From Candidatus Woesearchaeota archaeon (lineage in GTDB: Archaea > Nanobdellota > Nanobdellia > Pacearchaeales > GW2011-AR1): 64,000 nucleotides of DNA. Below the pieces are notes generated by a model. That model had not been told where the DNA came from. It ran no database searches and was given only the letters and a program-made list of their open reading frames with translations. Position 1 is the first letter of the stretch; each line of letters begins with the position of its first letter. Shown here piece after piece: positions 823-63,084 of the stretch. The translations under genes and the position numbers were made by a program. The stretch is from positions 35,149 to 99,148 of the forward strand of contig CAYTHI010000001.1 in NCBI GenBank assembly GCA_964437555.1, written 5' to 3'.

Positions 823-3800
823 ATGATTGATAATCCAATCCAAAAAATAACTGGCCCATGCGTAATCCTCGCAGGCGCAGGAACAGGCAAAACATACACA
901 ATTGTAGAGAAAATAAAATATTTCATTGAAAACAAAACTTACAAGCCAGAAAGGATTGTCTGCATAACTTTCTCAAACGAAGCAGCTAATAACCTTATAT
1001 TAAGAACAGATAAAACCTTGGAGAATGAAGAAAAAAATAAGCCGATAATAAGGACATTTCATGGCTTTTCAGCAGACCTTTTAAGAATATACGGAGATAA
1101 AATAGGAATAAGCAAAGAATTCAAGATTCTTGATACAGACCAGGCAAAAGTTATCCTTCACAGAAATCTAAAAATAAATCCTGTTAATTGCCATAAATAC
1201 ATAAGCACAATAGGAACTGCAAAAGATTTAGGAATAAAACTGGAGGAATTTGAGCAATTCCTAAATGCAAAACTATTAACATATGAAAACATGGACATGG
1301 AAAAGAAACTGGAAAATATGAATTTTGAATTGCAAACATTGCATTTAAGCAAAAACAAAACAGACAAAAAAATTCTCGTCAATGAAATAAAAAAGCTAAG
1401 AAGAATAATTGAGCTAAGAAAATTCGTAAATGCATGGAGAGCTTATGAAAAGCTGAAAAGCAAAGGAAATTACCAGGACTATTCAGACTTAAACAAAAAT
1501 GCTCTCTGTTTGCTGGAAAAAAACCCAGAAATATCGAATGATTTTGATTATGTAATTGTAGACGAGTTTCAAGATACAAATAAGCTTCAGCTAGACTTCC
1601 TGATAAAGCTGGCATCTCATAATAATATAACAGTTGTGGGAGACATGAATCAGAGTATTTACAGATTTAGAGGAGCGTACAAGGAAAATCTCAATCTTTT
1701 CAAACAAGCTTTTGATGTAAAACAAGGCGACATCTTTAACTTATCAAAGTCCCATCGCTCGCCAAATAAGGTATTAAAAACAGCCCATAAATTAATACTA
1801 AACAACTATCAAAATCCTGCTGAATGTTTTTTTGTTGACAACATTTACAATAGAGAAGGCAATAAAGTTGAAGTCTACGAATTAAGCAATGCAAGGGAAG
1901 AAGCAAGAAAAGTCATAGAAATTATCCGGGAAGAAACAAAAAATGGCTGCCCGATAGAAGAAATATGCGTCATGTTCAGAACCCATCAGCAGGGAAGAAT
2001 AATAAAAAGATTTCTGGAGCAGGAAAAAATACCCTATTACGCTGTCTCAAAGTCCTCATTACTAAAGCAAAAGTCAGTCAAAACAATTCATTCTTATCTA
2101 AGTATAATAAACAAGCTAAAAAATAAAGAAAAAGGCGGCGAGGATTCTTGGTGGGGTCTTATTTACAACAGCAATTTCTCAAAAGATGATTTGATAAAAA
2201 TCGGAAAAGAAATAAAGAATTTCTCAAAAAGACACAATGGTAATGAAAGAGAAAGTATAGGAAGTCAGAACAAAGAAAACCAAAGCAAATCAAATTCAGA
2301 CAATAGCTCTAGCTATCCTAATCATCCAATGCCTTACCTTTCAACATATCTTTTAGAAAGTCTTGAAAAACTCCAGCTTTCAGGAGAGGGAAATCTCGGA
2401 GTAAAAATAATAATTGAGAAAATAAAAAAAATGATGGAATTCTCGCAAAAAGGAATATCAGAGCTTGTTAAAGAAGCATGCAGAATATCCGGCTTCATAA
2501 ACGAGCAGAGAACAAAAGAAGAAAAAGAAATAATGCTCAATTTAAACAAATTTTATGAGATAGCTAAGATGCATGAGGATTTCTATGATTCCGACTTATC
2601 CAATTTCCTTTATTATTTAGAAACGTTAGAAACTTTAGAGATAGAGATAGAAGCGTCAAGAATTGAGGAGCCAGGCGTAAGACTAATGACTTCTCACGCC
2701 ACAAAAGGCCTTGAATACAATAAAGTTATAATAACTAATCTGGCACATGGAAGATTTCCTATTGAAAAATATGCTAGCACTAATTTAATACCAACAGAAT
2801 TATTGCCTGAAGTAAAAAATGAAATCGCGGGATTAGACGATGAGCAAAAAGACAATTTTATTCTTTATTATGAAAAATACAATCAGCTTTTAGAAGAAAG
2901 GCGTCTTGCCTATGTTTCTTTCACGAGGGCAAAAGAAAATCTTTTTTTGACATATGCCCGAGAATATGCAGGGAAAAAACTACTGCCTTCCCAATTTCTC
3001 AATGAAATATCTTACAAAAATAATCCTGACATTGCCTTCATTATAGATTTAGAAACAAAATATTCAGAGCCCAAAGCTGAAATAAAGCCGGCATACGGCT
3101 TGCATCAGTTTTTAGATGCAAAAACTCTTGAAACAATCGAATTAAATCAGCCTAATGAGTTAAATAAAGAAAAAGAAGAGCACAAAAGATTCTCCCCTTC
3201 CGCTTTATTGCTATTTGATGAATGCCAGAAGCAGTTTGAATACAAATATGTGTTTAACATGCCTGAAAGAAAAGCTGTTTCATGGGAAGCAATGAGATTA
3301 GGGAGTTTTGTTCATATCGTTCTTGAGCAAGGAGTTAAACAGGCATTCAAGAAAATAGATGACTTCCTTGCTCTTGCAAAAGAAATGTCAATGGATGAAG
3401 ACTGGGAAAGCATTAATCTAAATGAAGCTGAAACCCTCCTGCGAGTTTTTTTTGAAAGAAATAAAGGAAAATACAATGAGGAGAGTGAGACAGAACAATA
3501 TCTTAATCTAAATTTATCAGGAATGAATTTCATAGGCTTCGCAGACAGAATTGACTTTGATGAAGGCGGAAGTGCATCAATAATTGATTACAAAACAGGC
3601 AAAAGCACTATTGCTGTAAAAGACAGGAACTGGCAGCTCGGCTTTTATGCGCTTGCTGCAAAAGAAAAATACAATTCTGTTAAGTGTGTTGTCCTAGACA
3701 TGCTAAAGCAGGACAAGCCGATTGAATTTGATATTGATGAGCAGGGAAATGCGATATGCAAAAGCTCTGACAGGATAGACGGATTTAATATTTATGATGT

Positions 3801-3918
3801 CAGATCAGAACTTATTGAAACAGGAAAGGCAATCCTGCAAGCTTACAAGCAGGGATTTAAGCCCTGTTCCCCTGAAAAAAATTGCGATTTTTGCAATGAA
3901 TTTGTTTGGAAAATATAA
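823..3918 (+). CDS. UvrD/PcrA-family SF1 helicase fused to a C-terminal RecB/Cas4-like PD-(D/E)XK nuclease domain with a Cys cluster
   Basis: Walker A 'AGAGTGKTY' and helicase motif II 'VIVDEFQDTN' are present. The C-terminal region carries 'IIDYKTGK' and the Cys motifs 'FDECQ...' and 'CSPEKNCDFCNEF', typical of Fe-S RecB-family nucleases. There is a low-complexity Ser/Asn insert. Confidence 0.75.
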   Translation: MIDNPIQKITGPCVILAGAGTGKTYTIVEKIKYFIENKTYKPERIVCITFSNEAANNLILRTDKTLENEEKNKPIIRTFHGFSADLLRIYGDKIGISKEFKILDTDQAKVILHRNLKINPVNCHKYISTIGTAKDLGIKLEEFEQFLNAKLLTYENMDMEKKLENMNFELQTLHLSKNKTDKKILVNEIKKLRRIIELRKFVNAWRAYEKLKSKGNYQDYSDLNKNALCLLEKNPEISNDFDYVIVDEFQDTNKLQLDFLIKLASHNNITVVGDMNQSIYRFRGAYKENLNLFKQAFDVKQGDIFNLSKSHRSPNKVLKTAHKLILNNYQNPAECFFVDNIYNREGNKVEVYELSNAREEARKVIEIIREETKNGCPIEEICVMFRTHQQGRIIKRFLEQEKIPYYAVSKSSLLKQKSVKTIHSYLSIINKLKNKEKGGEDSWWGLIYNSNFSKDDLIKIGKEIKNFSKRHNGNERESIGSQNKENQSKSNSDNSSSYPNHPMPYLSTYLLESLEKLQLSGEGNLGVKIIIEKIKKMMEFSQKGISELVKEACRISGFINEQRTKEEKEIMLNLNKFYEIAKMHEDFYDSDLSNFLYYLETLETLEIEIEASRIEEPGVRLMTSHATKGLEYNKVIITNLAHGRFPIEKYASTNLIPTELLPEVKNEIAGLDDEQKDNFILYYEKYNQLLEERRLAYVSFTRAKENLFLTYAREYAGKKLLPSQFLNEISYKNNPDIAFIIDLETKYSEPKAEIKPAYGLHQFLDAKTLETIELNQPNELNKEKEEHKRFSPSALLLFDECQKQFEYKYVFNMPERKAVSWEAMRLGSFVHIVLEQGVKQAFKKIDDFLALAKEMSMDEDWESINLNEAETLLRVFFERNKGKYNEESETEQYLNLNLSGMNFIGFADRIDFDEGGSASIIDYKTGKSTIAVKDRNWQLGFYALAAKEKYNSVKCVVLDMLKQDKPIEFDIDEQGNAICKSSDRIDGFNIYDVRSELIETGKAILQAYKQGFKPCSPEKNCDFCNEFVWKI

Positions 3919-7744: not shown

Positions 7745-7941
7745 TTTTTCCTTCCTAATTTGCTACTATTTCTGCCTTTACTTTGCTCTTTACTCTGTCC
7801 TTCCCTGCCGAGAATCGGCTTTTCAGGAAAAATACTTCCTAAATACCCGCAATTCCTGCACATCCAGCTTCCTGTTATTCCGCCAGCAACTAGTTCAACG
7901 TCATTGCTCCCGCAATTCGGGCAAAATTTCTTTGTTATCAT
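7741..7941 (-). CDS. small zinc-ribbon protein (CxxC...CxxC), translationally coupled to gyrA
   Basis: 'CPNCGSN...CRNCGY' four-Cys ribbon. Its stop overlaps the gyrA start (ATGA). Confidence 0.5.
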
Positions 7942-8246
7942 TTTAAAACTCCATTAATCCAGCCTAAATATTTATGATATCCTGTAAATCTAATTGCAAT
8001 AACTTCTGGCAGTTCATATTTATGATTATCAAGAATAAATCTCCCAAGTTTTTTATAATTATTAGATGAAGTTTTAATATCTAATCTAAACTCATTACTT
8101 GCTTCCAATTTTCCCTTCCAATTATAAAATCCTTTAATACTACTAATCTGCACACATGCTCCTAATCTTGCATTAACTATTTTTTTAGCTAACTCTTCTG
8201 CATCCTTTTTGCTTGCAACTGTTGTGGAAACTATCAAATATGCCAT
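7938..8246 (-). CDS. cutA: divalent-cation tolerance protein CutA1
   Basis: 'MAYLIVSTTVASKKDAEELAKKIVNARLGACVQI...YELPEVIAI' is typical CutA. The start is placed at an internal Met to avoid overlap with the gyrB end. Confidence 0.65.
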   Translation of the reverse strand: MAYLIVSTTVASKKDAEELAKKIVNARLGACVQISSIKGFYNWKGKLEASNEFRLDIKTSSNNYKKLGRFILDNHKYELPEVIAIRFTGYHKYLGWINGVLK

Positions 8247-8247
8247 C

Positions 8248-10593
8248 TTACAAATCAACCTCTGCCTCATGGGCTCTTTCCGCAATGAACTGCCTGCGGG
8301 GCTCAACATCATCACCCATTAATCTTGAAAATACAGAATCTGCTTTTACAGCATCTTCAATAAGAACTTTGTTTAACAGGCGATTTTTAGGATTCATTGT
8401 TGTTTCCCACAATTGTTCAGCATTCATTTCTCCAAGTCCCTTAAATCTCTGGACATTAAGGCTTCCGCCCAGCTTATGAAGAAGCGTTTTCAATTCGTCA
8501 TCAGAATAAACATAATGGTCTTTTTTCTTTCTTACTTTATACAATGGAGGAACAGCAATGTAAATATTGCCATTTTCAATCAAAGGCCTCATAAATCTGA
8601 AGAAAAATGTCAGCAATAAGGTTCTGATATGCGCTCCGTCAACATCAGCATCGGTCATAATAATAACCTTGCTGTATCTTATCTTATCAATATCAAATTG
8701 CTCCCCTACTCCTGTTCCTATGGCTGTTATAAGATTTGCAATTTCTTCGCTTGAAAATACTTTTGTCAAATTTGCTTTTTCAACATTCAATATTTTTCCT
8801 TTTAATGGAAGAATTGCCTGATAATCCTTGTTACGCGCTTGTTTTGCGCTATTATGAACAAATACCCCAGATGCCAAAGCAAAATTATGAGTATTGGGAA
8901 CTTCTATGTCATAAACAGCTATCTTTTTATTGAGATTGGTTTTACTTATAATTTTATGATTTCTCATAGGAACAATTGCAATTGTTTTTTCATAGAGGGG
9001 CATTAAAGAATCCTCATTAGTCAAGTATTTAGCTTCTTTATAACTTCCACCCCTTAACATGAAATTGTGGTCAGGGGTGCAAACAATTTCTTCGCCATTA
9101 TCCAAAATTATCTTAATTACTTCCGCACTTTTCTTGGTAATCCTCGGATTTTCTATTCTTTCTATGCCTATGCTTCCATCTTCTTTGATAGTGTAACAAA
9201 AGTTCTGCTTGCCCTGTTTACCTTCTTCTATTAATTCCTCAAAACTAAGATTTCTTCCGTCTGCAAGAGCGACTTTAGTATCGCCTGAAAAACATCCTCC
9301 GGCTGAATCGCCTTCAACAAGATATACTTCTGTTTCCTCGGTCTTATTGCTTGAGCAGTCAGCAAGCTTTCCAGGCAACCCCCCGACAGAAAATGCGTTT
9401 TTTCTTCTTACCAATTCTTTTGCTTTCTTAGCAGCATTTCTTGCCTGCTGCGCTTCCAACGCTTTTGCAACAATTCTTTTCGCAACATTAGGATTTTCTT
9501 CAAAAAATTCAGACATAGAAGACATAGAAGTGCTTTCAACAATTCCTTTTATTTCTGAATTTCCTAATTTTGTTTTTGTCTGCCCTTCAAACTGCGGCTC
9601 AGGAACTTTAACTGAAATAATAGCTGTAAGGCCTTCTCGAACATCATCTCCTGTCAAACTGCCATCCTTCTCTGACTTAAGCATCTTATTCTTTCTTGCA
9701 TAGTCATTTATCGCCCTTGTTAATGCTGCCTTAAAGCCGACAACATGAGTTCCGCCTTCAACAGTATTTATTGTGTTTACAAAACTCAAAACATTTTCCT
9801 GATAACCTGAATTATACTGGACAGCGCACTCAACAGTCACTCCGCTGTCAACTTTGTAATAATAAACCGGCTTTGCATGAATAGCATCTTTGGATTCATT
9901 AACCCATTTAACAAATTCTATCAGTCCGCCTTCATAATGGAAAGTTTCCTTCTTTCCAGAAATTTCATCATTAACAATTATTTTCAATCCTTTGTTAAGA
10001 AAGGCTATTTCTCTAAAACGAGTTTCCAAAACAGAATAATCAAATTTTGTTGTTGAGAATATCTCATCATCAGGCGTGAAAGTTACAATTGTTCCTGTTT
10101 CTTTTTTGTCGCACTCTCCTATAACCTTTACATCGTATAAGGGCTTTCCTATCTTGTATTCCTGCTGGTAGATTTTTCCGTCTCTTTTTACAACAACTTT
10201 CATATGTTTGGACAAAGCAGCAACAACACTTATTCCTACACCATGCAATCCGCCTGAAACAGCATAGCTTCCCTTGTCAAACTTGCCTCCAGCGTGCAAT
10301 TTAGTAACAACAATCTCCAAAGCCGGCTTTTTATACACAGGATGCACGTCAACAGGGATTCCTCTCCCGTTATCTTCAACAGTCACACTCCCATCCTTAT
10401 TTAGAGCGACTTTTATTGTGTCGCACTGCCCTGCCAATGCTTCGTCAACAGAGTTATCAACAACTTCCCATACCAAATGATGGAGCCCCTGCTTGCTCGT
10501 GCTGCCTATATACATAGCCGGTCTCTTCCGGACTGCTTCAAGGCCTTCCAAAACCTTGATATTTTCTGCTGAATAGTTTTTTTGATCTGTCAT
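8248..10593 (-). CDS. gyrB: DNA gyrase subunit B, interrupted by a mini-intein
   Basis: GHKL ATPase motifs ('VVDNSVDEA', 'DNGRGIP', 'GLHGVG'). The Toprim motif 'LVEGDSAGG' is separated from '[26 protein letters not shown]' by a 148-aa insertion. Confidence 0.9.
8851..9294 (-). other. mini-intein (no homing-endonuclease domain) inserted in the GyrB Toprim motif (GDSAGG^S)
   Basis: N-terminal block A '[13 protein letters not shown]', block B 'TPDHNF', and a C-terminal '...[15 protein letters not shown]' followed by extein +1 Ser. Removing it restores the canonical GyrB 'EGDSAGGSAKQ' sequence. Confidence 0.8.
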
Positions 10594-10703: not shown

Positions 10704-10988
10704 TTACTTTTGAATTTTTGCCGCTTTTTTCACAGCTTTCGGCTTTTCCACATCAGATTTTTCCGCCTGGCTTGCTTTTTCTCTCGCCAAATCAGCTTTC
10801 ACAATGCCTCTCGCTCTTGCCAAATGGAAAGCTTCTGTCCATTTCAGCTTTCTTCTGTCTCTTCCCAGCTTCAAATGGTTTTTTCTGCACTTGCTTGAGC
10901 AGTAATAAACAACAATCCCGTCATTCTTAATAAGAAAAACTCCCTTATAATCTGCTTGTTCCTTTCCGCAAAAGATACACTTTGCCAT
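10704..10988 (-). CDS. rpl24e: 50S ribosomal protein L24e
   Basis: 'CIFCGKE...FLIKNDG...YCSSKCRKN' L24e zinc-ribbon signature. Confidence 0.85.
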   Translation of the reverse strand: MAKCIFCGKEQADYKGVFLIKNDGIVVYYCSSKCRKNHLKLGRDRRKLKWTEAFHLARARGIVKADLAREKASQAEKSDVEKPKAVKKAAKIQK

Positions 10989-10989
10989 T

Positions 10990-11298
10990 TTATGCTGCCC
11001 CTCTTATAACAAAATCTTTCCTTGCATCAGCTCTGAAATAAAGTGCCCTGCCGTTTAATTTATGAGGCAAATCCATTCTCTCTACATAAACTCCTTTCCT
11101 CTTTAAAGAATCAATCATATTTTTAATACTGCTAGCATATCCAAAGGCATAGCCTTCAACAGTTCCTAAAACCTCTCTAAAAAAAACTACTGCCCCATTT
11201 AGTTTACCTACATGAAAATCTTCTAGGTCTTCTCCTTTATCTTTTATAAAATCAATAGCCGCATCAAGTGAAGAACAGCCTACCGGATTATTTGTCAT
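10990..11298 (-). CDS. hypothetical protein (102 aa) inserted between rps28e and rpl24e
   Basis: Clean ORF coupled to neighbours. No confident family assignment. Confidence 0.45.
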   Translation of the reverse strand: MTNNPVGCSSLDAAIDFIKDKGEDLEDFHVGKLNGAVVFFREVLGTVEGYAFGYASSIKNMIDSLKRKGVYVERMDLPHKLNGRALYFRADARKDFVIRGAA

Positions 11299-11299
11299 T

Positions 11300-11605
11300 T
11301 TAAACCTGCACCCCTTTTGTTATTTTTCCTCTGACTCTTCTGGCTTCAATTTCAGTTTCTCTCAATTTAAGATAATCTCCGACTCTGACAGGCCCTTTAA
11401 CATTTCTTCTCATTGTCTTTCCTTCATTCCTTCCTTCCAGAACTTTTACTTTTACTTGAGTTACTTCTCCTCTTGCCCCTGTCCTTGCATAAATCTCCTC
11501 AACTAATGCCAAAACAGGCTCTCCAACAGCCAAAGTATTCTTTAATGTGGTTGTCTGCTCGCCAGACTGGCTTTCCTTAACTCTTGGTTTTTTTCCGCCG
11601 CCCAT
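11300..11605 (-). CDS. rps28e: 30S ribosomal protein S28e (with N-terminal extension)
   Basis: '[47 protein letters not shown]' matches the S28e core. Confidence 0.85.
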
Positions 11606-25658: not shown

Positions 25659-28600
25659 TTATTCTCCCAGACTCCCTGTAAACGTTACAGTGGAGTTTCT
25701 TGCTCCGGCAGCCTCCTGTAAAGGAACAGTTACATTAATGTCAATTTCAGCAGTATCTGTTGCATTTGTATAATTAAGCCGGGCAATTGCCAGAATAGGG
25801 GAAGCAGTAAGAGTAATATTTGTATAAGTAAACTTTGACAATACCCAGTTAAAAGAGCCATTCTCCAAAGTGTAATTATCAATCTTGAATTGATAGTTAG
25901 TGCTCGGATTTGCCTGGCTTCTCCACAAATCAGTTGCTCCTATTGTAACATTCACAAAAGAATTCCCGTCATTCTGGATTAAGAAAGGAAGAGGGGAATT
26001 GTCAGAAGTATCATTGGTTCCAAACTGCGATATCTGCCCAAAATTAATGCTGGAATTAGGCAGGCTCATCTGAATCAATGAAGAAATATTAACTCTGAAG
26101 AAATCTGTCCATGCAGAATAATCCTGCTCGTCATAAGCTCTTATAGACCAGTTATATTGGTAATTATTATCATACAAATACAATAAGTCTCCTGATAGTT
26201 TATGGCTTGTCAAGCCCAATGGAAAAGATATGTGCCTATTATCCTCTCCATATCCGCTGCATCCCCCGCCTAAAATGTTTCTGCATGTTAAATTCAATTC
26301 ATAAAATAATGAATCTCCGTCATCATCGCTGCCGGCAGTCCATACAAAGGTCGGCGTCCTGTCGGTTGTTGAGCTTCCGTCTGCCGGGCTTGACAATGTC
26401 GGAGTTCCTGGAGGTGTATTAATTATAGTAAGATTTGATGAATTTACCCAGTTGCTATACTCCAGGCCATCATATAATCTCATTGAGCAAGTCCAATTAT
26501 GATTTTTAGTAGTATTGCCTGAAAGAAGAGTGGCATTGAAAAAAGAATTATTAGCATAGCTATTATTAAAGTCAACAACAAGATGTGACAAAGAATTATT
26601 AATCCACATGACAGTTACATTAATCCTGTCTCCTTCAGGATCAATTAAAGTGTCAAAGCAATTCAGATTCTCATTTGTCCTGTTTGTTCCAAGAGTTGAA
26701 TTTATCTCCGGAGTGGGGGCTGCTGGGGCATTATTAGAATCCTGGATGCTATAATTGCTAAAGCCGCTTATATTGAATATAACTGTTCCTGCATTTAATG
26801 ATGTGAAATTATAGCAATCATTGCAGATAGCATTGTCCCGATACACTTTAGGATACCTGAAATTGCCCGGCATATTATAGAAAGTGATATTTGCAGTTTT
26901 GTTCAAATGACTGAATATTGTAGAATTTGCAAAAACAAAATTATTCCGTAATTCTGTATTTAGGCTTAGGTTTGTCAAATTAAGGGCAGAAGTTCCTGAA
27001 ATGAATTTTATTTCTCCTCCGGAAGTTGTTCCATTTATTAAAGTAATAGTGATATTATTCCCATAGCTTGAATTCAAGTCGGCAAACTGACCTGAATAAT
27101 TTATTATTAATCTTCCGTGTTTAAAAGTAGGAAAAGCGCTAAGATTAACAGCAATATTAGTAAGATTAATTAATCTTGTATCTTCTATATATGCTAAACC
27201 TCCCTCGCTCGTTGCAGAACCATCCCCTGCACCCATCGCAGCAGATATTTGCTTAGTTACATTTGTATTATAAAGATAAAAAGCTCCTCCTGGCCCTCCT
27301 GATCCTGCTGAAGCAATGCATGTCGCATCGCATATCTCTCCGTTATTCAAAAGCCCCTCTACTTCTGAATCTCTTATTGTAATATTTTTGCCTCCGTTTC
27401 CATTATTGCCTGTATATGTAACACCTATTGAATTGGTAAAGTCAGGAATAAATGTATTTTTTACTGTGAGATTTTCAGCAGGGTCCCGCAATTCAATCCC
27501 ATGAACAGTTCCTATTACGGGCCCTGTATGCTCAATAGTAAATCCCTCTCCTTCTAATGCAATATTTGAGGCATTTACAACCAGGCAGCTTGCTGTTGTA
27601 GATAATGTATTGTTAAGGAAATAGGTCTTTCCTGTTTCATGCAAAGTTGTACAGGCAGAAACAAGAGACACATTAAGACCGAAAGTAACATTAACAGTAA
27701 AATTATTATTGCCCAAAGTGTCATTGGCATAAACTCTGAATACATAAGTTCCTGTTAAAAGAGAATTATTTGAATGCGTAAAAGCAGTTCCAAACTTTCC
27801 TTCATTGCCATTCATTGAAATATTATCTACTCCGTTGTTCATAGAGTATGAAACGCTTCCGTTTTCATCCAAGCTGACATTGAAAGTGAAAGGCAAATCG
27901 CTGAAGGTATAGTTCGCACCCTTAGGGAAGTATACTGTAATATTGGGGGGAGCTGCATCCGCCGGGCTGTAAGTAAGAGTGAAGTTTGAAGTATTGAATG
28001 CCTGATTATGAGGAATTGCATTATCCATAGCAAGAAAATTCCAATAATATGCTCCACTGCCATTAAGCCCGATATTATGCGTAATGTTTCCTACTATGCT
28101 GCTGTTGCCTAATCCTGTAAAGTTCTGTGCTACTAAGTCATTAGTTGAATTGTAAACAAATAATGTTGCATTGCTTACATTAACATCATCGGTAAATAAA
28201 GCTCCGAATGCAGCAATGCCTGTTGTTGTTATAGTATTATTGCTCGGATTTATTAGCATTACTTGAGGAGAAGTCTTATCTGCTGCAGAAGTATCAATTG
28301 TTATATTTGCGAAATAAACATCTGTTGCCTGGTCAGTATAAACAAGCTCCAATTCACTGCTTCCAAGTTGATTGTTAGACGGATAATTGGAACATCTGAC
28401 AGAAGGGAATCTTAATGCTCCTGTATTATCAGAGATCTGCTCTTGAGCAGTGAAAAACCCTGTTGAGGTATATTTTATGTAATCAATAGCTGTATTATTT
28501 TCAAAGACAATATGAGCGTTGTTGTTCGCATCAAGGCATCCCTCGCTATCATTGAAAGTTCCTGCATACGTCGCATTGGAATAAACTATTCCATCACTGC

Positions 28601-31600
28601 TGTTAATCACAACTAAATCCTCGCTTGCCGCATCTATCGCTGTAATCAAAATTGTTGTTCCTCTTATGCTTAAATGCATATTTGAAACAGCTAATCCATA
28701 AGCTATTGTGGTCTGATTTGCTGTAAACGAACCAGAAGAATTAATTACAAGCAAGCTACTTGTGGCAGCATCATCTAAGGCAATATAAACATTTCCATTG
28801 CTGCTCATATCTAAAGAACAGCTTTCAGCAATTCCAGGTCCGCCTGCCGATGCTCGTGTAGTCCATGCCAGAGTAGCACCAAGATTAGTAAACGAAAAAT
28901 CCATGTCAAAATCATCATTATCCATGCTGCAGGCAAGAAACCTGCCGCTTGTTGTAGTGCCGTCAAAAGCAACATCCGGGCGATAATTGTCGTTAGTTCC
29001 TCCGGAAACATCAATGATAGCTCCTGAATTAGCAACATTGCAGTCAGCAGTCACATTGTAAATATAACTTATATCATTCTGACCTCCCGTATCATCAGTA
29101 AACATATAGATAATAGCAGAGCCATTAGTGGCAATAGCCATATCGCTATGAGTTCCAGTTAAAGAATCATAAGTATTCCAATTAACACCTTCATCTGAAG
29201 AATCTGAACAGGAGGCATCACTGCTTGCATCCTGCCACAATGCAATAAGTAAATCGGAATTTAACCTGACTATGTTTTTTCCTGCATTAAATCCGCCAGT
29301 AGTAGTTCCTGTTGCTGTTGTTGATGCGTCCGCATTAATCAGATAGTTAGTTGAAGGGTCAATAATATGGTCAAACTCCACACTGCCTCCTAAAATCCTT
29401 AAGTCAAAACTATCCTGCTCTCCTTCCAATCCTGTAAGAAATACTTTATTATATTCATTATCATTAATGCTTTCAAATTCTGCAATAGTCTTATTTTCAT
29501 TTATTTCATAGACTTCAATCCTCGGACTTCCGTTCACAGCTCTTGGATAAATGCTTATGTCCCTGTCGCTTGTCAAATTCCTCTCAAATTTAACTCTCAC
29601 ATAATGCTCTGCAGGAATAGTTTCACTCCAATTTCCGTCCAGTTTAGAAACTTCAGGATAAATGTCAGAGATAAATGTCCTGTTTGAATCAAGATGCTCT
29701 GCAGAAACAATTTCTATAATTAAATCAAACGTCTGATTGCTCAACTCCGGAATAATCCATTCAGCGTAATCATATATTCCATCTTCATCTAAATCAGAAA
29801 CATTTACAGGAACAACATACGCTTGTTTTTCTTCCCAGTATATTTTTAAATCATCTTTATCAATAAGATTATATGATTCATCTAAATTCGTGAAGGACAA
29901 AACATTCTCATAATGAATTTCATCAGGCCCTATAATCAAAACTTTCTTGCCTATTCGTCCATCAGTTAAATTTTCCTCTATCGCATAAGGAGCAGGAGTA
30001 TAATAACTCACTTTGGCTCCTTTCTCAAACTCGCTTAGCTCAATTAATATTTCTTTTCCTTCTTTTGCTTCTGCTTCTTCAGAAACTGCAAATCCGGTCA
30101 ATCTTAAAATATTTCTAAACCATTTTAAAATTCTGTTTTCCCTGTTCAAACTAAGGTCTGCTGTAACCGCTCCAGTGATTATGCTTCCTGTAATATCAGC
30201 ATTAATGGATTCTGGCTCATTATTAGCGGGCTCTGACACCTCAACATTCTCTTCAACATCGGCAACTTCATCTGTTCCTTCATTATCAAATTCCTTCTCT
30301 ATCTTGTCAATAGAAATATTTTCAGCGATTTCAGGGATAAAAATGCTGAAACTGGCAGGTCCATCAACATTATCAACTTTCTTAACCCATTTAACAGGCT
30401 CGTTAAGCTTTATTTCATCATGAACAAGCTCAACATTTATGGATAAATTAGGCTCAATTGTTTTATTAGGAGAAATTATGCTTTCATTAGAAGTTTTATT
30501 AATGCCAATTTCAGGAACAATTTCCTCATTTTTTTCATCAGATTTATTCAGATTTCCTGAAACTGATATGCCTTGAAATACTTCAACAATTGTTTGTCCT
30601 TCATAAGAAAGCTTAGCAGATAAAACGCCTTCATCAGCCCTAAAATTAAAATCTTCCAAATCAATAATTAAAGTAAGCTTATTATTTCCTAAATATTCTT
30701 TGCCGAATCCTTTTTCCTCTAAATAATAATCAGTTGAAACAATGACTTCATTTCTATTTATATCAACTTTGACATTTTCATCTCCAATTGCCTCTCCATT
30801 CGCAGTTACGCTTCCTGAAATTAATCTTGCACTCTGTCCTTCACTTAGCTCATGCACAAAATCTTGCCCATTAACCGCAGTTCCTGTAATTCCAGATGAA
30901 AATTCAGATATCGCTGCTCCTGTAATTCCCGGAGCAGGGCTTCCACCACCAGATTCACTTCCTCCTCCTGAACTTTCAGAATTACTATCAGAAGTTTCCT
31001 GCTTATTTTCTTCTGAATTTTCTTTAGATTCTGCAGGGGTTTCTTTCTTATCAGCATTCAAATCATCCTGCATCTGGGGCTCATCAATTTTAGAAGAGCC
31101 GCTTCCTGAAGAGCCAGAACCAAATTCTTTTACTATCTCCAATTCAAAACTCACAGAAGGATAAATTTCTCTTATGCCACTTATACCATACCCTTCGCCG
31201 CTTCCTGATAAATCCAAACCTTCCGCATAAAAATCTCCATTAACAGCCTGTTCTGTGATTAAATCTTTCAAAGCAATTTCTCTTTCAATACTATTAAGAC
31301 CAATAAGTACAACAGAATCAACAGGAATAAGTTCCCCCGCTTTCAAATTTAAAATCAAATTGCCTTCTATCTGCTCTCCAAGAACATATCGTGTCTTAAT
31401 ATCAAGCGTTGCATTCCCTGTTAAATTCGCTGAGATGAAAAAGAAAAGTAAGAGAACTCCTAAAACAAAAAAGAAAGCTGCAGGAAAAAGATATTTCTTT
31501 AAATTATTTCTGGATTTTGCATGCCCTAAGTATCTTGTAATTATCTTTCCATCAACTCTTTCTGTTTCATAAAGATATGGGCCAAATCTCTTCCCATTTT

Positions 31601-31625
31601 TATAAGTATATTTTTTATGTACCAC
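25659..31625 (-). CDS. giant (1988-aa) cell-surface protein with N-terminal signal anchor, Gly/Ser linkers, tandem beta-sandwich and beta-helix-like domains, and dense N-glycosylation sequons
   Basis: Basic cytoplasmic N-terminus then TM 'LFPAAFFFVLGVLLLFFFI'. 'GSGSSGSGSS...SGGGSESGGGS' linkers. '...TPTFVWTAGSDDDGDSLFYEL' Ig-like motif. A run of NxT/NxS sequons (e.g. 'NLTNLSLNTELRNNFVFANSTIFSHLNKTANITFYN'). Confidence 0.6.
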   Translation of the reverse strand: MVHKKYTYKNGKRFGPYLYETERVDGKIITRYLGHAKSRNNLKKYLFPAAFFFVLGVLLLFFFISANLTGNATLDIKTRYVLGEQIEGNLILNLKAGELIPVDSVVLIGLNSIEREIALKDLITEQAVNGDFYAEGLDLSGSGEGYGISGIREIYPSVSFELEIVKEFGSGSSGSGSSKIDEPQMQDDLNADKKETPAESKENSEENKQETSDSNSESSGGGSESGGGSPAPGITGAAISEFSSGITGTAVNGQDFVHELSEGQSARLISGSVTANGEAIGDENVKVDINRNEVIVSTDYYLEEKGFGKEYLGNNKLTLIIDLEDFNFRADEGVLSAKLSYEGQTIVEVFQGISVSGNLNKSDEKNEEIVPEIGINKTSNESIISPNKTIEPNLSINVELVHDEIKLNEPVKWVKKVDNVDGPASFSIFIPEIAENISIDKIEKEFDNEGTDEVADVEENVEVSEPANNEPESINADITGSIITGAVTADLSLNRENRILKWFRNILRLTGFAVSEEAEAKEGKEILIELSEFEKGAKVSYYTPAPYAIEENLTDGRIGKKVLIIGPDEIHYENVLSFTNLDESYNLIDKDDLKIYWEEKQAYVVPVNVSDLDEDGIYDYAEWIIPELSNQTFDLIIEIVSAEHLDSNRTFISDIYPEVSKLDGNWSETIPAEHYVRVKFERNLTSDRDISIYPRAVNGSPRIEVYEINENKTIAEFESINDNEYNKVFLTGLEGEQDSFDLRILGGSVEFDHIIDPSTNYLINADASTTATGTTTGGFNAGKNIVRLNSDLLIALWQDASSDASCSDSSDEGVNWNTYDSLTGTHSDMAIATNGSAIIYMFTDDTGGQNDISYIYNVTADCNVANSGAIIDVSGGTNDNYRPDVAFDGTTTSGRFLACSMDNDDFDMDFSFTNLGATLAWTTRASAGGPGIAESCSLDMSSNGNVYIALDDAATSSLLVINSSGSFTANQTTIAYGLAVSNMHLSIRGTTILITAIDAASEDLVVINSSDGIVYSNATYAGTFNDSEGCLDANNNAHIVFENNTAIDYIKYTSTGFFTAQEQISDNTGALRFPSVRCSNYPSNNQLGSSELELVYTDQATDVYFANITIDTSAADKTSPQVMLINPSNNTITTTGIAAFGALFTDDVNVSNATLFVYNSTNDLVAQNFTGLGNSSIVGNITHNIGLNGSGAYYWNFLAMDNAIPHNQAFNTSNFTLTYSPADAAPPNITVYFPKGANYTFSDLPFTFNVSLDENGSVSYSMNNGVDNISMNGNEGKFGTAFTHSNNSLLTGTYVFRVYANDTLGNNNFTVNVTFGLNVSLVSACTTLHETGKTYFLNNTLSTTASCLVVNASNIALEGEGFTIEHTGPVIGTVHGIELRDPAENLTVKNTFIPDFTNSIGVTYTGNNGNGGKNITIRDSEVEGLLNNGEICDATCIASAGSGGPGGAFYLYNTNVTKQISAAMGAGDGSATSEGGLAYIEDTRLINLTNIAVNLSAFPTFKHGRLIINYSGQFADLNSSYGNNITITLINGTTSGGEIKFISGTSALNLTNLSLNTELRNNFVFANSTIFSHLNKTANITFYNMPGNFRYPKVYRDNAICNDCYNFTSLNAGTVIFNISGFSNYSIQDSNNAPAAPTPEINSTLGTNRTNENLNCFDTLIDPEGDRINVTVMWINNSLSHLVVDFNNSYANNSFFNATLLSGNTTKNHNWTCSMRLYDGLEYSNWVNSSNLTIINTPPGTPTLSSPADGSSTTDRTPTFVWTAGSDDDGDSLFYELNLTCRNILGGGCSGYGEDNRHISFPLGLTSHKLSGDLLYLYDNNYQYNWSIRAYDEQDYSAWTDFFRVNISSLIQMSLPNSSINFGQISQFGTNDTSDNSPLPFLIQNDGNSFVNVTIGATDLWRSQANPSTNYQFKIDNYTLENGSFNWVLSKFTYTNITLTASPILAIARLNYTNATDTAEIDINVTVPLQEAAGARNSTVTFTGSLGE

Positions 31626-31734: not shown

Positions 31735-33678
31735 TTATAATCCAACTTGAAATATCCAATTTGCGTCTTCACTGAATCCGCAGGGGTCTATTATTCCTGC
31801 GCTTTCATTATGGATTGTCGTTGCATTGCACGCTCCAAAATAAGACAAGGAGGAAAAGCAGTCTGGGTCTGAATCATCTGTAAACCCATCATAATCATTA
31901 TCCAACCCATCCCTGCATTGAAACAAGCTGGGAGTGGGAATATGTTGGGTTATATCAATATATTTATTATTCCCGAGTGATTTGAAATAAAAAATATTAT
32001 CTTCTTTTCTAACTGTGCTGAAGTTTTTAGATATAAAATTAATTTCTGTAAAATTCCCTATTGGAATCTGTAAAAGCCTCCCGCCCCGCCCTATAAGCCC
32101 GACTTGTCTGAAATTTGGCTGCAAACTTAGGGGAGGAAACCAGTGGCTTAATGTGATTGAATCAAATCCCGCATGCTGTGCAATTGCAATCCCTGATTTT
32201 ATTGAATATCCATAATAATCCTGGCTGAAATTATAAAATGCAGGCGAATATTCTGTTGAGCTTAATCCTTTTCCTGTTATTCCATTATCTCTCCATATTG
32301 CCCTTACAAGATTTGCTATATATTTTCCCTGCTGCGGAAATCCATGATACGTGTGAATATCAAGGTAATCATAATATGCCGAGCCATTAACAGCAACAGC
32401 TTTTAGAAATTCGTAAGTTACTCTTCCTTCCCGGTCTCCTAGAGTTACAATCTTGATTCCGGGGCGGCCATCGCTTGACCTATAATAAAATCCATCAATA
32501 ATATAACTGTCCTCATTAAATCCCGCATAAAGCGCGGCATTATCAACACCTGTTACTCCGAAAGTTAAAACAGGAAGCGATGGAGCAACTTCTTTTACAG
32601 CAAGATAAGAAATATTCATCAAACTTAATATCTGTACCTCTTTATCTGTTCCAAGCGGGCCATAATCGTAGCTGGCATTAACTTCAAATTGATGGCCCCA
32701 CTCATTGCCTATTTGCACCCCAACAAAATAATCTCTGTATACCGGATTGTTGTAATACCTGTCCGTTATGTTTTTTATATAATCTGTCCATTGCTGCTCG
32801 CTTTTCGGATAAGAGTCCGGCTCCTGAAGCCCTATCCCTCCCAAAGTAAATGAGACTGTTGAAAGGTCAGGATGATTTGACCTTACCGTGAGAAGAAATT
32901 TCATATTTGCATTCTTAAAGTTATTGGCTGCCGCATCTAATCCGGTGAAATTGTAGGTTAATGCTGTGCCATTTTGAACATTATACCAGTCTAATATAGA
33001 GCGATGATATTGCACTCCTGTTTGGTTTGTCTGGCTTAACGTAGCTGAAGATGAGCCTACCGAATGAAGTCCCAATACGGGCAGCGGAGTTATGCTTGGA
33101 TTTAGCAAGCCATTTCTTATTCTCGTGCATGTATCTAAATCAAAGTCAGATAGATTAATGATTTTATAGCTGCCGCATGCTCCAACCGGAGGGATATTGC
33201 CGCTGGAAGCCTGTTGCGTGCAAATTGCTTCAAGCCCTGAAAAATCACACAATCCCGAAGATAAAACTCCTGCAACATCAACTGACTCAACTGAAGCACC
33301 CCCTAAATCTAAATCCAAATTAAAATCATAAACTTCAAAGCCAAACTCGCCGGGAAAATTATTTGTTTCTGACAGGATTATGTTTCCGTTAGAAGTCTTA
33401 AATAAAAATTTAATTTCTCTTAGCTGCCCCTGACCTGCTCCTCTGCGAACACCGACTTCAATTCTGTTTCCATCAATAATCAAGTCACAATTCTCAGCTT
33501 TCAAATCCAAATCAAAACAGCTTAGCAGTCTGCCCTGCTCTCCGCTTCCTCCTTCTCCTGTTCCTAAAATCTTAGTTACCGGAGGCTGAACAAAAATCCA
33601 AACAATTGCAATAGCAACAAGTGCAATCAATATCACAAGAACAGTTGTAACAATGCTACTAATTCCTCTTTTTCGCAT
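31735..33678 (-). CDS. secreted protein with archaeal prepilin-like (class III-type) N-terminus and a conserved Cys-containing N-module; C-terminal region carries a glycoside-hydrolase-like 'GNEW' motif (tentative)
   Basis: 'MRKRG|ISSIVTTVLVILIALVAIAIVWIFVQP'. The N-module is homologous to that of 39146..41413. 'VGVQIGNEWGHQF' resembles a GH-A acid/base motif. Confidence 0.5.
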   Translation of the reverse strand: MRKRGISSIVTTVLVILIALVAIAIVWIFVQPPVTKILGTGEGGSGEQGRLLSCFDLDLKAENCDLIIDGNRIEVGVRRGAGQGQLREIKFLFKTSNGNIILSETNNFPGEFGFEVYDFNLDLDLGGASVESVDVAGVLSSGLCDFSGLEAICTQQASSGNIPPVGACGSYKIINLSDFDLDTCTRIRNGLLNPSITPLPVLGLHSVGSSSATLSQTNQTGVQYHRSILDWYNVQNGTALTYNFTGLDAAANNFKNANMKFLLTVRSNHPDLSTVSFTLGGIGLQEPDSYPKSEQQWTDYIKNITDRYYNNPVYRDYFVGVQIGNEWGHQFEVNASYDYGPLGTDKEVQILSLMNISYLAVKEVAPSLPVLTFGVTGVDNAALYAGFNEDSYIIDGFYYRSSDGRPGIKIVTLGDREGRVTYEFLKAVAVNGSAYYDYLDIHTYHGFPQQGKYIANLVRAIWRDNGITGKGLSSTEYSPAFYNFSQDYYGYSIKSGIAIAQHAGFDSITLSHWFPPLSLQPNFRQVGLIGRGGRLLQIPIGNFTEINFISKNFSTVRKEDNIFYFKSLGNNKYIDITQHIPTPSLFQCRDGLDNDYDGFTDDSDPDCFSSLSYFGACNATTIHNESAGIIDPCGFSEDANWIFQVGL

Positions 33679-47042: not shown

Positions 47043-47115
47043 GCCCGAATAGTCTAGAGGCCAAGGACAGCGCCCTTTCGCGGCGCAAACCCGGGTTCGA
47101 ATCCCGGTTCGGGCA
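47043..47115 (+). tRNA. tRNA-Glu (anticodon UUC)
   Basis: Cloverleaf: GCCCGAA...TTCGGGC acceptor, anticodon loop CTTTCGC, T-arm CCGGG-TTCGAAT-CCCGG. Confidence 0.85.
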
Positions 47116-48542: not shown

Positions 48543-48614
48543 GGCGGTTGTAGTTTAACGGTAGAACGACGGACTGTGGCTCCGTAGACGAGGGTTCGAC
48601 TCCCTTCTTCCGCT
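48543..48614 (+). tRNA. tRNA-His-like (anticodon GUG) with possible G-1 and two U-U mismatches in the acceptor stem
   Basis: D-arm GTTT/GAAC, anticodon stem ACGGA/TCCGT with loop CTGTGGC, T-arm GAGGG-TTCGACT-CCCTT. The acceptor GCGGTTG vs CTTCCGC pairs only 5 of 7. Confidence 0.5.
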
Positions 48615-48639
48615 TTCGTAAAGACATTAAAGCGTAAAA

Positions 48640-55502: not shown

Positions 55503-55573
55503 TGGACCCGGAGGGAATCGAACCCCCGACCTCTGCTCTGGAGGCAGAAATTATGCCATTTAACTACGGGTCC
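55503..55573 (-). tRNA. tRNA-Trp (anticodon CCA), intronless
   Basis: The reverse complement folds as GGACCCG...CGGGTCC acceptor, anticodon stem TCTGC/GCAGA with loop CTCCAGA, T-arm GGGGG-TTCGATT-CCCTC. Confidence 0.8.
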
Positions 55574-59960: not shown

Positions 59961-61460
59961 ATGGACAATAATATAGAAAAAATAACAGAATCCCTCTCTC
60001 CACTAGAGCTAAAAGTCATTCCATTCCTTAACAGCAGCATTGAAGAAATAATCAAAAAAACAGGCCTTGACATGGTTTCTCTTTTAAGGGCATTCAAATT
60101 TCTTGAGGCAAAGGGTCTTCTAAAATTAAGCCAGGAGAAAAAGGAGGTTATAGACCTCGGAGTAAACGGACTATATTATAAAAAGAATAGCCTTCCGGAA
60201 AGAAAGCTGCTAACTTTGCTTGTAATGAACAAGCTATTGACTCTTCAGGAAGCTAAAAGCCTGTCAAAACTTTCAGACAATGAATTTAAAGTTTCTCTCG
60301 GCGTTCTTAAAAAAAGAGCAGCCATAGAAATAAAGGAAGGAAGAATAATCCTAAGAGCAACAAAGCAGGAAATAGTCAATAAAACTCCTGAAGAAAAGCT
60401 AATTGAATCCCTGCCTTTAAAGCTCCAGGAATTGAATGGAGAGCAAAAGCATTCGCTTGAAGAATTAAGGTCAAGAAAAGAGATAATAGAAATAAAAAAA
60501 GACACTGAAACACACATAGAGCTTACCGAACTTGGAAAAAAAATAGCTGGAAAAGAAATAAATCTTGATCTAATTGAGGAAGTCACTCCTGAAATAATAA
60601 AAGACCCCAATAACAAAAAGTTCAGAAGATATGACATAAAAGCTCCTGTTCCTAAAATAAAAGCTGGGAAGAGACATTTCGTAAACAAGGCAATCAAAGA
60701 CGGAAGAAAAATATGGACAGACATGGGATTCAAAGAAATGGAAGGCGATTATGCAGTTACATCTTTCTGGAACTTTGATGCATTATTTACTGCGCAGGAC
60801 CATCCTATAAGAGAGATGCATGATACTTTCTTCATAAAAAAACTCATCGGCTCCCTCCCTCAAAAAGAAATTGTTGAAAAAGTTAAAAAAGCCCATGAAT
60901 CAGGCGTTGAAGGAAGCAGGGGCTGGCAATATTCATGGAATGAAAAAGAAGCCAGAAAAGTTTTACTGCGAACGCACACTACCTGCTTATCAGCAAAAAC
61001 CCTTGCAAAAATAAAACCAGGATTTGCAGGAAAATATTTCGCAATAGGCAAAGTTTTCAGAAATGAAACAGTAGACTGGAGCCACGGATTTGAATTCAAC
61101 CAAAGCGAAGGAATAGTAATAGACCCTAACGCAAACTTCCGCCATCTAATCGGCTATTTAAAGCAATTCGCGGAGAAAATGGGATATAAAAAACTGAGGA
61201 TACAGCCGGCATATTTCCCTTATACAGAACCAAGCTTGGAAGGAGCAGCATGGAATGAAGAAAAACAAAAATGGGTTGAAGTCCTTGCTGCAGGAATATT
61301 CAGGCCCGAAGTAACTTATCCTTTGCTTGGAACAGCAATGCCTGTCCTTGCCTGGGGTCCTGGATTTGACAGGCTAATGATGCAAGCCCATAAAATCAAA
61401 GACCTGCGTGAATTGTACAGCAATGATATTAAAAATCTCAGGGAGAAGCCTGTAATCTAA
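59961..61460 (+). CDS. pheS: phenylalanyl-tRNA synthetase alpha subunit (archaeal type)
   Basis: 'HPIREMHDTFFI', 'FRNETVDWSHGFEFNQSEG' and the class II core. Confidence 0.88.
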   Translation: MDNNIEKITESLSPLELKVIPFLNSSIEEIIKKTGLDMVSLLRAFKFLEAKGLLKLSQEKKEVIDLGVNGLYYKKNSLPERKLLTLLVMNKLLTLQEAKSLSKLSDNEFKVSLGVLKKRAAIEIKEGRIILRATKQEIVNKTPEEKLIESLPLKLQELNGEQKHSLEELRSRKEIIEIKKDTETHIELTELGKKIAGKEINLDLIEEVTPEIIKDPNNKKFRRYDIKAPVPKIKAGKRHFVNKAIKDGRKIWTDMGFKEMEGDYAVTSFWNFDALFTAQDHPIREMHDTFFIKKLIGSLPQKEIVEKVKKAHESGVEGSRGWQYSWNEKEARKVLLRTHTTCLSAKTLAKIKPGFAGKYFAIGKVFRNETVDWSHGFEFNQSEGIVIDPNANFRHLIGYLKQFAEKMGYKKLRIQPAYFPYTEPSLEGAAWNEEKQKWVEVLAAGIFRPEVTYPLLGTAMPVLAWGPGFDRLMMQAHKIKDLRELYSNDIKNLREKPVI

Positions 61461-61461
61461 A

Positions 61462-63084
61462 ATGACAAACATAAAATTTCCAAGAAAAGAAATAGAAAAA
61501 CATCTGCATTTAACGGAGGAAACAATAGAGAAAATAAGCCTGTTTGGAACCCCTCTTGAAAGGATTGATTCAGATTCCTTAGAAATAGAAGTCTTCCCAA
61601 ATCGCCCTGACTTAATTTCAATGCATGGTTTCCTTAGAGGTTTCAAAGCATTCTTGGGCAAAGAAACAGGCATTAAAAAATACAAAGCAAGCGCTTCAGG
61701 AAATAAATTGATAATTGATAAATCTGTAAAAGATGTAAGGCCTTACGCTGTCTGCGCAATAATAAAAGATATCCATCTGGACGATGAAAGAATAAAAGAA
61801 ATAATAGACATGCAGGAAAAACTGCACATTACCTTGGGAAGAAACAGGGAAAAAGTGGCAATAGGCATATATCCTCTGGATAAAATAAAATTCCCCATAA
61901 CTTACACGGCAAAAAGCCCTGCCTCAATAACCTTCTGTCCTTTGGAAGAAAAAAAAGCTCTAAGTGCCTCGCAGATTCTGACAAAAAGCCCTGCGGGAAA
62001 AAAATACAGCTATTTACTAAAAGGAAAGAAAAAATACCCTGTATTCATGGATTCGGATAATAAAATACTTTCAATGCCTCCGATAATAAATAGTGAAGAC
62101 ACAGGCAGAGTAAGCGAATCAACAAAAGATATTTTTATTGAGTGCTCTGGAAACGATGAAAATGCATTAGATAAAACGCTTAATATAATAGTAACAGCAT
62201 TGGCAGAAATGGGTGGAAAAATATATTCAGTTGACATACACGATGCCAAAGCAAAAATAACTCCTAATCTTGCAAGCACAAGAATGAAAGTTTCTCTGGA
62301 AAATGCAAATAAATTGCTTGGATTAGATTTAAAGGAAAAAGACTTGCCTAAGCTTCTTTCCAGAATGGGATATGAATATAAGAACAAAAAAGTTTCTATT
62401 CCTGCATGGAGAACGGATGTATTGCATGAAGTGGATATAATTGAGGACATTGCAATATCCTATGGTTATAACAAAATAACTCCTGAAATACCTAACATAT
62501 CAACAATAGGAGAAGAGACAAAAGCAACCAAAATGAAAGACAACATTACAGAACTTCTGCTTGGCCTCGGCTTGCTAGAAATCTCCTCATATCATTTAAT
62601 AAAAAAAGAGGAAGCCGATACGATGAAATTAAAAAAAATTCTTGAGCTTGAAGACTCGAAGACAGAATACAAAATCTTAAGGCCAAATCTCCTAATCCCT
62701 TCATTAAGGATTATATCTGAGAACATTGACGCAGATTATCCGCAGAAAATATTTGAAATTGGAAGGACTTTTGTCAATAATCAAGAAAAAGAAACAGGTA
62801 TAGAAGAAAAAGATAATCTTATCATCTCCCTTACGCCGTCAAATTTCACAGAGGCAAAACAGCATCTGGATTACTTATTCTCAGCATTAAACCTGAAGTA
62901 TGAAATAGGCGATGATGAAATTCACGGATTGATTGAAGGCAGGACCGGCTCAATAAAATTAAGTGGCAAAAAAATAGGATACCTTGGTGAATTACATCCG
63001 AAAATGCTTAATGGCTGGAAAATTAAAATGCCTATCGCAGTAATAGAAATCTCCCTTAACGAAATATTTAATGCCTTAAATTAA
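61462..63084 (+). CDS. pheT: phenylalanyl-tRNA synthetase beta subunit (archaeal type)
   Basis: N-terminal 'LEIEVFPNRPDLISMHGFLRGF' B3/4 domain. 540 aa. Lies 1 nt downstream of pheS. Confidence 0.85.
   Translation: MTNIKFPRKEIEKHLHLTEETIEKISLFGTPLERIDSDSLEIEVFPNRPDLISMHGFLRGFKAFLGKETGIKKYKASASGNKLIIDKSVKDVRPYAVCAIIKDIHLDDERIKEIIDMQEKLHITLGRNREKVAIGIYPLDKIKFPITYTAKSPASITFCPLEEKKALSASQILTKSPAGKKYSYLLKGKKKYPVFMDSDNKILSMPPIINSEDTGRVSESTKDIFIECSGNDENALDKTLNIIVTALAEMGGKIYSVDIHDAKAKITPNLASTRMKVSLENANKLLGLDLKEKDLPKLLSRMGYEYKNKKVSIPAWRTDVLHEVDIIEDIAISYGYNKITPEIPNISTIGEETKATKMKDNITELLLGLGLLEISSYHLIKKEEADTMKLKKILELEDSKTEYKILRPNLLIPSLRIISENIDADYPQKIFEIGRTFVNNQEKETGIEEKDNLIISLTPSNFTEAKQHLDYLFSALNLKYEIGDDEIHGLIEGRTGSIKLSGKKIGYLGELHPKMLNGWKIKMPIAVIEISLNEIFNALN

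Follow-up and report, generated by a model that had tools for sequence, protein, structure and literature searches.

The B subunit of DNA gyrase, GyrB, is listed as a host of inteins, with 33 bacterial cases from Actinobacteria, Chloroflexi, Cyanobacteria and Proteobacteria and further cases in archaea, and selfish inteins as a general rule insert in conserved catalytic motifs (PMC4760082). The gyrB intein of Synechocystis sp. PCC 6803 (Ssp GyrB), as well as an engineered mini form of it from which the endonuclease was deleted, showed more than 90% splicing in Escherichia coli (PMC3620165), and this intein has become a standard tool in split-intein engineering (PMC3443213, PMC3620165). A gyrB allele is common to Halobacteria and bacteria (PMC4071816), and a survey of archaeal gyrases found 61 intein-containing GyrB sequences, which were set aside (PMC9348778). 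A natural GyrB mini-intein of 123 aa has been described from Desulfonema ishimotonii, with reported relatives in candidate phyla, Archaea and Cyanobacteria (PMC6390638). GyrB inteins, natural mini and archaeal forms included, are already in the literature, and the gyrB intein allele at exactly the site considered here is widespread and documented.

We analyzed a 148-aa insert in the gyrB gene of an archaeal window, by which we mean the whole stretch of 64,000 nucleotides under study. In our assessment the insert is, with high probability, a cis-splicing class-1 mini-intein residing in the GyrB of a DPANN-type archaeon, an endonuclease-deleted derivative, and it is an individually undescribed further member of the well-known and very widespread gyrB allele. 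It agrees with the gyrB allele of cyanobacteria and other bacteria, of which Ssp GyrB is the type example, in host gene, insertion site, Cys1, TPDH, terminal His-Asn and Ser+1. The cyanobacterial gyrB inteins that we retrieved are mostly 435 aa long and contain an endonuclease region, whereas the archaeal intein of the window is a naturally occurring deletion form of 148 aa. The link to the Synechocystis intein itself is drawn from the literature; the best match (84%) to a probe modelled on the N-terminal part of Ssp GyrB came from an uncultured cyanobacterium, and the scan retrieved no Synechocystis locus. The Desulfonema mini-intein is free of an endonuclease like that of the window but differs in host lineage and length. 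The full-length gyrB inteins (~431 aa) of Nanoarchaeota, Pacearchaeota and Woesearchaeota occupy the same site, have the same lobes and sit in host exteins 70-80% identical to those of the window, but they keep between their lobes ~283 aa, comprising an HNH-type motif and a repeat-rich segment, all of which the window intein lacks. Npu DnaE, the Ssp DnaB mini-intein and NrdJ-1 share with the window intein the HINT fold (TM 0.79-0.85) and the residues of blocks A, B, F and G, but they are only 19-26% identical to it and reside in different hosts, and DnaE has Cys at +1 where the window has Ser.

The gyrB gene and its insert

The GyrB precursor scored 944.8 bits against the NCBIfam gyrB model TIGR01059 (cut-off 882.4) and contains the Pfam domains HATPase_c, DNA_gyraseB, Toprim and DNA_gyraseB_C. 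A 781-aa protein identical to the precursor (P0033) is present in NCBI data. The host is a DPANN-type archaeon, and its nearest named relatives are labelled Nanoarchaeota or Pacearchaeota. As listed in Table 1, the insert lies within one uninterrupted 781-aa open reading frame, so its halves are not on separate genes as those of a split intein would be, and the raw DNA and the translation agree codon by codon on its boundaries. It separates EGDSAGG from SAKQAR in the Toprim domain and begins 7 residues past the glutamate of EGDSAGG (E427), which we take, from what is established for GyrB, to be the catalytic Toprim glutamate (E424 in E. coli). The Toprim Pfam match in the precursor picks up again at residue 582, at profile position 13, which means that the intein breaks Toprim shortly past E427 and ahead of the DADVDG acidic motif. 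The first-pass annotation of this DNA had reported a 148-aa insert in GyrB within Toprim; our translation reproduced its coordinates and quoted strings, VFVHN among them, and the placement in Toprim proved correct. That annotation gave no strand, and the insert is on the minus strand.

The partner subunit gene gyrA, located downstream of gyrB, is without an intein, and an HMM built from the gyrB intein family found no second copy when all six reading frames of the window were searched. With a G+C content of 0.34, the intein differs unremarkably from the exteins (0.39) and from the window overall (0.36).

Table 1. Positions of the gyrB gene, its insert and the neighbouring gyrA gene in the window
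Feature	Positions	Strand	Description and basis
gyrB precursor gene, host of the intein	8248..10593	minus	781 aa + stop; ORF call, TIGR01059, Pfam
N-extein, GyrB residues 1-433	9295..10593	minus	ATPase and transducer domains and start of Toprim; ends EGDSAGG
Predicted class-1 mini-intein, 148 aa, GyrB residues 434-581	8851..9294	minus	First residue C434 (codon 9294..9292), last residue N581 (codon 8853..8851); PF14890, TIGR01445, TIGR01443, AlphaFold2 model, PDB fold matches
N-terminal splicing lobe, intein residues 1-102	8989..9294	minus	Cys1 (9294..9292); block B T73-P-D-H76 (9078..9067)
Short linker, intein residues ~103-111	8962..8988	minus	KTIAIVPMR; alignment with 431-aa homologues
C-terminal splicing lobe, intein residues 112-148	8851..8961	minus	D129 (8910..8908), H136 (8889..8887), H147-N148 (8856..8851); TIGR01443
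C-extein, GyrB residues 582-781 + stop	8248..8850	minus	Ser+1 nucleophile S582 (codon 8850..8848), remaining Toprim with DADVDG acidic motif, GyrB C-terminal domain
gyrA, partner subunit, 844 aa	5210..7744	minus	Pfam DNA_topoisoIV 518.8 bits and six DNA_gyraseA_C repeats; downstream of gyrB

Intein profiles, splicing residues and fold

Against the Pfam model Intein_splicing (PF14890) the whole protein scored 55.8 bits and the insert alone 62.6 bits (cut-off 35.8). Similarly, TIGR01445, which describes the intein N-terminal region, gave 46.7 and 51.8 bits, respectively (cut-off 24.5), its match spanning intein residues 1-79, and TIGR01443, for the C-terminal region, gave 31.6-31.7 bits (cut-off 15.6). 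Judged by these sequence profiles, the resemblance of the insert to inteins lies far beyond a chance match. Pfam and NCBIfam profile searches of the insert returned no match to endonuclease families (HNH, LAGLIDADG).

The residues expected of a splicing domain are all in place. From block F/G to Ser+1 the sequence reads VYD129IEVPNTH136NF...VH147N148, followed by S582. In a set of 76 gyrB inteins, bacterial as well as archaeal, C1, T73, H76, D129, H147 and N148 were invariant, while the block F histidine H136 was kept in 75; likewise Cys1, the terminal His-Asn and Ser+1 were invariant in all 120 best-scoring intein-containing GyrB homologues. When the PDB was searched by sequence with the insert, the significant matches were all inteins (NrdJ-1, PhoCDC21-1, Npu DnaE and Pho RadA), and block F/G of the insert aligned to VYDIGVERDHNFALKNGFIA of Npu DnaE.

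Structure prediction led to the same family. An AlphaFold2 model of the insert, built with 45 homologues, is nearly all beta, with a mean pLDDT of 91.2 and a pTM of 0.83; residues 103-106 form its only disordered stretch and the sole segment with pLDDT below 50. In a Foldseek comparison with the PDB the top 50 matches were all HINT-fold domains, nearly all of them inteins, at a probability of 1.00, the best being Npu DnaE (4kl5, TM 0.81/0.85) and the Ssp DnaB mini-intein (1mi8, TM 0.81/0.85). The first-pass annotation had called the insert an intein with the full splicing signature (Cys1, TxxH, His-Asn and Ser) and a mini-intein without an endonuclease domain, and had proposed a search for a Hint domain as a check. 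Its reading is borne out, as intein models match above their curated cut-offs, the signature residues are invariant in homologues and the 148 aa contain zero HNH or LAGLIDADG matches. It had also named two outcomes that would speak against an intein, the lack of a Hint match and a loop without the junction residues in homologues; both were examined, and what we found was the reverse in each case.

Excision in silico and empty sites

Deletion of residues 434-581 in silico produced a GyrB of 633 aa, which aligned with solved mycobacterial-type GyrB chains (8s7k and 6gau) with no gap at the junction. When this spliced sequence was used as the query, the matches listed included 115 intein-free GyrBs of 628-664 aa, 76-82% identical to it over 99-100% coverage and belonging, where named, to Candidatus Pacearchaeota, Nanoarchaeota or Nanoarchaeia. 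All 115 carry EG[DE]SAxG directly followed by S/T, and 37 carry exactly EGDSAGGSAKQAR, the predicted ligated junction. Thus the deletion proposed in the first-pass annotation does yield a contiguous GyrB like its intein-free homologues, and removal of precisely these residues restores the conserved Toprim motif. The distribution of the intein is sporadic, empty sites being at least as common as filled ones among the closest relatives in this search. The mature GyrB is expected to have 633 aa and not 781, and phylogenies and structure models should take the spliced sequence.

Relatives and loss of the endonuclease region

We also used the precursor as the query and considered the best 120 matches listed, a list that favours intein carriers, since a shared intein raises the score. 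Every one of the 120 has its insert at the same site; 58 of these inserts are mini forms (140-211 aa) and the other 62 are long forms (355-431 aa, in most cases 431). The long inteins carry between their lobes a HxHHxDFNKxNNNPxN motif, for example HKHHIDFNKRNNNPSNIIRLSKEEHLMLH, and this region scored 19.2 bits against Pfam HNH_3, below the cut-off of 24.8, so that the HNH call stands on the motif together with a sub-threshold match. They also hold between the lobes a lysine- and tryptophan-rich repetitive region of ~200 aa, which is probably DNA-binding.

The window intein aligns on either side of the endonuclease region of its 431-aa relatives and is without ~283 aa. The alignment thus indicates that it derives from a ~431-aa HNH-type gyrB intein by a deletion of ~283 aa between the lobes, and the linker at residues ~103-111 is the scar left by the missing HNH endonuclease and DNA-binding region of the full-length allele. 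At least 10 distinct linker scars were seen among the mini forms, some of them being clean fusions of both edges of the endonuclease region (for example ...KIGGRITIEGYEMLEAINNWNHKI). The window intein belongs to the commonest mini class, 148 aa long with the linker PLYEKEIGIxPRxNHKI, an architecture found in 25 of the 120 best-scoring relatives. On quick neighbour-joining trees of exteins and of inteins the mini and long forms were interspersed, with ~30 changes of state; these trees are rough and to be read qualitatively only, the figure is noisy, and part of the changes could reflect re-invasion instead of independent deletions.

Identity to relatives was 63-78% for the intein and 68-79% for the whole protein. 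The intein is, therefore, about as conserved as its host, which is consistent with selection keeping splicing competence. Empty, full and several independently shortened sites, taken together, make up the classic homing cycle, in which invasion is followed by decay of the endonuclease and then by loss. The gyrB family offers a natural series of empty, full (HNH-bearing) and independently shortened sites in one archaeal lineage, which could serve studies of this cycle.

Proposed splicing and alternative readings

The splicing steps we infer from the chemistry of class-1 inteins and from homology to the Ssp GyrB intein, for which splicing has been demonstrated (PMC3620165). The 781-aa precursor would fold a 148-aa HINT domain, whose Cys1 would attack the Gly433-Cys434 bond in an N-S acyl shift helped by Thr73 and His76 of block B. 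The hydroxyl of Ser+1 (Ser582) would then take the N-extein by transesterification, after which Asn148 (Asn581), helped by His147 and by Asp129 and His136 of block F, would cyclise and release the intein. Finally, an O-N shift would give a normal peptide bond and a 633-aa GyrB reading EGDSAGG-SAKQAR. Splicing itself and its efficiency are in the same way predicted, and splicing may be necessary for viability, for which the first-pass annotation had called it obligatory. Since the insert lies between the Toprim glutamate (E427) and the DxD acidic motif, the precursor should have no DNA-cleaving activity before splicing, and splicing would presumably be required for gyrase function. The mini-intein is a degenerate mobile element which is no longer capable of self-homing and is inherited with its gene.

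We considered whether an intein that splices might, in addition, have been co-opted as a conditional switch, responding for instance to redox state or temperature, which times the appearance of active gyrase. Such a role is compatible with splicing as proposed above. Several features would suit it, namely the insertion site in a catalytic motif, the long persistence of endonuclease-free forms, and an extra cysteine (C72) directly before the block B TPDH, which is invariant in all 76 gyrB inteins, a second one, C33, being present in 58 of them; disulfide-gated conditional splicing is known in other inteins. Yet many of the closest relatives have an intein-free GyrB, implying that the lineage needs no such switch, and selfish inteins as a rule insert into conserved catalytic motifs anyway (PMC4760082). 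We therefore regard a switch of this kind as quite unlikely. The narrower proposal that the 148-aa form, with its conserved linker and invariant C72, is a domesticated switch gating active gyrase in reduced-genome archaea, for example by redox, appears to us slightly less probable still.

A second possibility is that the intein has decayed, so that it no longer splices or only cleaves, leaving this copy of gyrB non-functional. The endonuclease is gone, which places the element at the degenerating stage of the homing cycle, and the linker, of the shortest class that is common, received low model confidence. Against this, the catalytic residues are all unchanged, the open reading frame is intact, gyrA is intact just downstream, and the 25 relatives of the same 148-aa architecture keep every block residue despite 20-30% divergence, which argues for purifying selection on splicing. 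A decayed intein is accordingly most improbable. Weakest of all is the reading of the insert as a lineage-specific GyrB loop that is never removed, the protein functioning with its 148 extra residues: in some lineages GyrB does contain large insertions that are not spliced out (that of E. coli has 804 aa against ~640 aa in others), but matches to curated intein models above cut-off, invariant splice-junction residues, the HINT fold, the position within the Toprim acidic cluster and close relatives (~80% identity) that precisely lack the insert contradict it, and we reject it as having practically no likelihood.

An assembly artefact was likewise rejected, the open reading frame being continuous and the same 148-aa architecture recurring in 25 relatives.

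Distribution of the gyrB intein allele

The mini-intein of the window is an ordinary representative of its family, as hundreds of public gyrB genes, bacterial and archaeal, contain the same element. We scanned one genome per prokaryotic species with a probe modelled on the N-lobe of Ssp GyrB, which yielded 317 relatives, and we retained 80 loci. All 79 gyrB loci for which upstream sequence was available have EG[DEN]SA[GAS]G directly before the intein, which starts with C. The hosts of the retrieved loci are cyanobacteria, Chloroflexota, Acidobacteriota, Armatimonadota, CPR bacteria, Methanoperedens and DPANN archaea, and the gyrB inteins measure 430-435 aa when full and 143-334 aa when shortened. 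The window intein is 57-59% identical to three cyanobacterial gyrB inteins and 61-70% identical to those of Chloroflexota, Acidobacteriota, CPR bacteria and Methanoperedens.

The practical consequences of the present locus are small and leave current understanding unchanged; the family does supply compact natural variants (140-166 aa, with Ser+1) of an intein whose cyanobacterial cousin already serves protein engineering. When 1.84 billion cluster representatives were searched exhaustively and without a profile, 4872 proteins matched at E<=1e-3, 2799 of them at E<=1e-10; many of these proteins match in more than one stretch, which suggests that they contain several inteins.

Related inteins in other hosts

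The NCBIfam model NF052663, described as 'intein-containing RtcB family protein', scored 126.8 bits on the N lobe of the gyrB intein (window 8851..9294, minus strand), and thus RtcB-family genes host a very close relative of this intein, which suggests transfer between host genes. Among the intein-matching proteins P0153-P0301 some carried up to 9 separate stretches matching the gyrB intein, for example P0156 (3009 aa) and P0153 (2039 aa, with 8), and proteins of this type look like heavily multi-intein proteins, all of whose inteins are mutually related. In the GyrB relative P0109 (1352 aa), the insertion site used in the window is occupied by a mini-intein of 165 aa. P0109 also has the precomputed Pfam domains LAGLIDADG_3 and HTH, and there is probably a second, unrelated intein at another place in its gyrB.

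In full-length relatives of the intein, such as that of P0048, the HNH motif is followed at residues ~180-390 by a repetitive Lys/Trp/Glu-rich segment of ~200 aa, in which the motifs 'QWKDxxY' and 'EYRxK' recur. Pfam returned nothing significant for it, the best match being a faint DUF1889 (E 0.11, below the cut-off). The homing endonuclease presumably binds DNA through this segment.

Cysteines at intein positions 72 and 33

The cysteine directly before block B (Cys72, C-TPDH) was invariant across 76 bacterial and archaeal gyrB inteins (76/76), of which 58 also had C33. Since Cys72 is without an assigned catalytic role, a disulfide with Cys1 is conceivable.

Genes around gyrB and elsewhere in the window

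The features are listed in the table below. In its longest reading, from a GTG start, the CutA1-family ORF shares 68 nt with the 3' end of gyrB (8248..8315), and for this reason its true start is probably an internal ATG. At least two of the three small ORFs upstream of gyrB appear to resemble archaeal ribosomal proteins, one L24e-like (MAKCIFCGKE...) and one S28e-like, in agreement with the archaeal origin to which those GyrB relatives that have names point.

Coordinates of features in the window
Feature	Position	Strand	Remark
CutA1-family ORF	7938..8315	-	between gyrB and gyrA
Intein residue C72	9081..9079	-	codon
Three small ORFs	10704..11605	-	directly upstream of gyrB
1988-aa ORF	25659..31625	-	no Pfam family
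647-aa ORF	31735..33678	-	adjoins 1988-aa ORF; no Pfam family
1031-aa helicase-nuclease protein	823..3918	+	UvrD-type helicase domains, PD-(D/E)XK nuclease
tRNA-Glu(TTC)	47043..47115	+	
tRNA-His(GTG)	48543..48615	+	
tRNA-Trp(CCA)	55503..55573	-	
PheRS alpha and beta subunits	59961..63084	+	

Pfam at E<=1e-3 gave no match for the 1988-aa ORF or the neighbouring 647-aa ORF, which may encode large surface or unknown-function proteins of a type common in DPANN archaea. In the 1031-aa protein the nuclease domain is C-terminal and joined to the helicase domains, an architecture like that of AddA/PcrA-like helicase-nucleases, here in an archaeal context.
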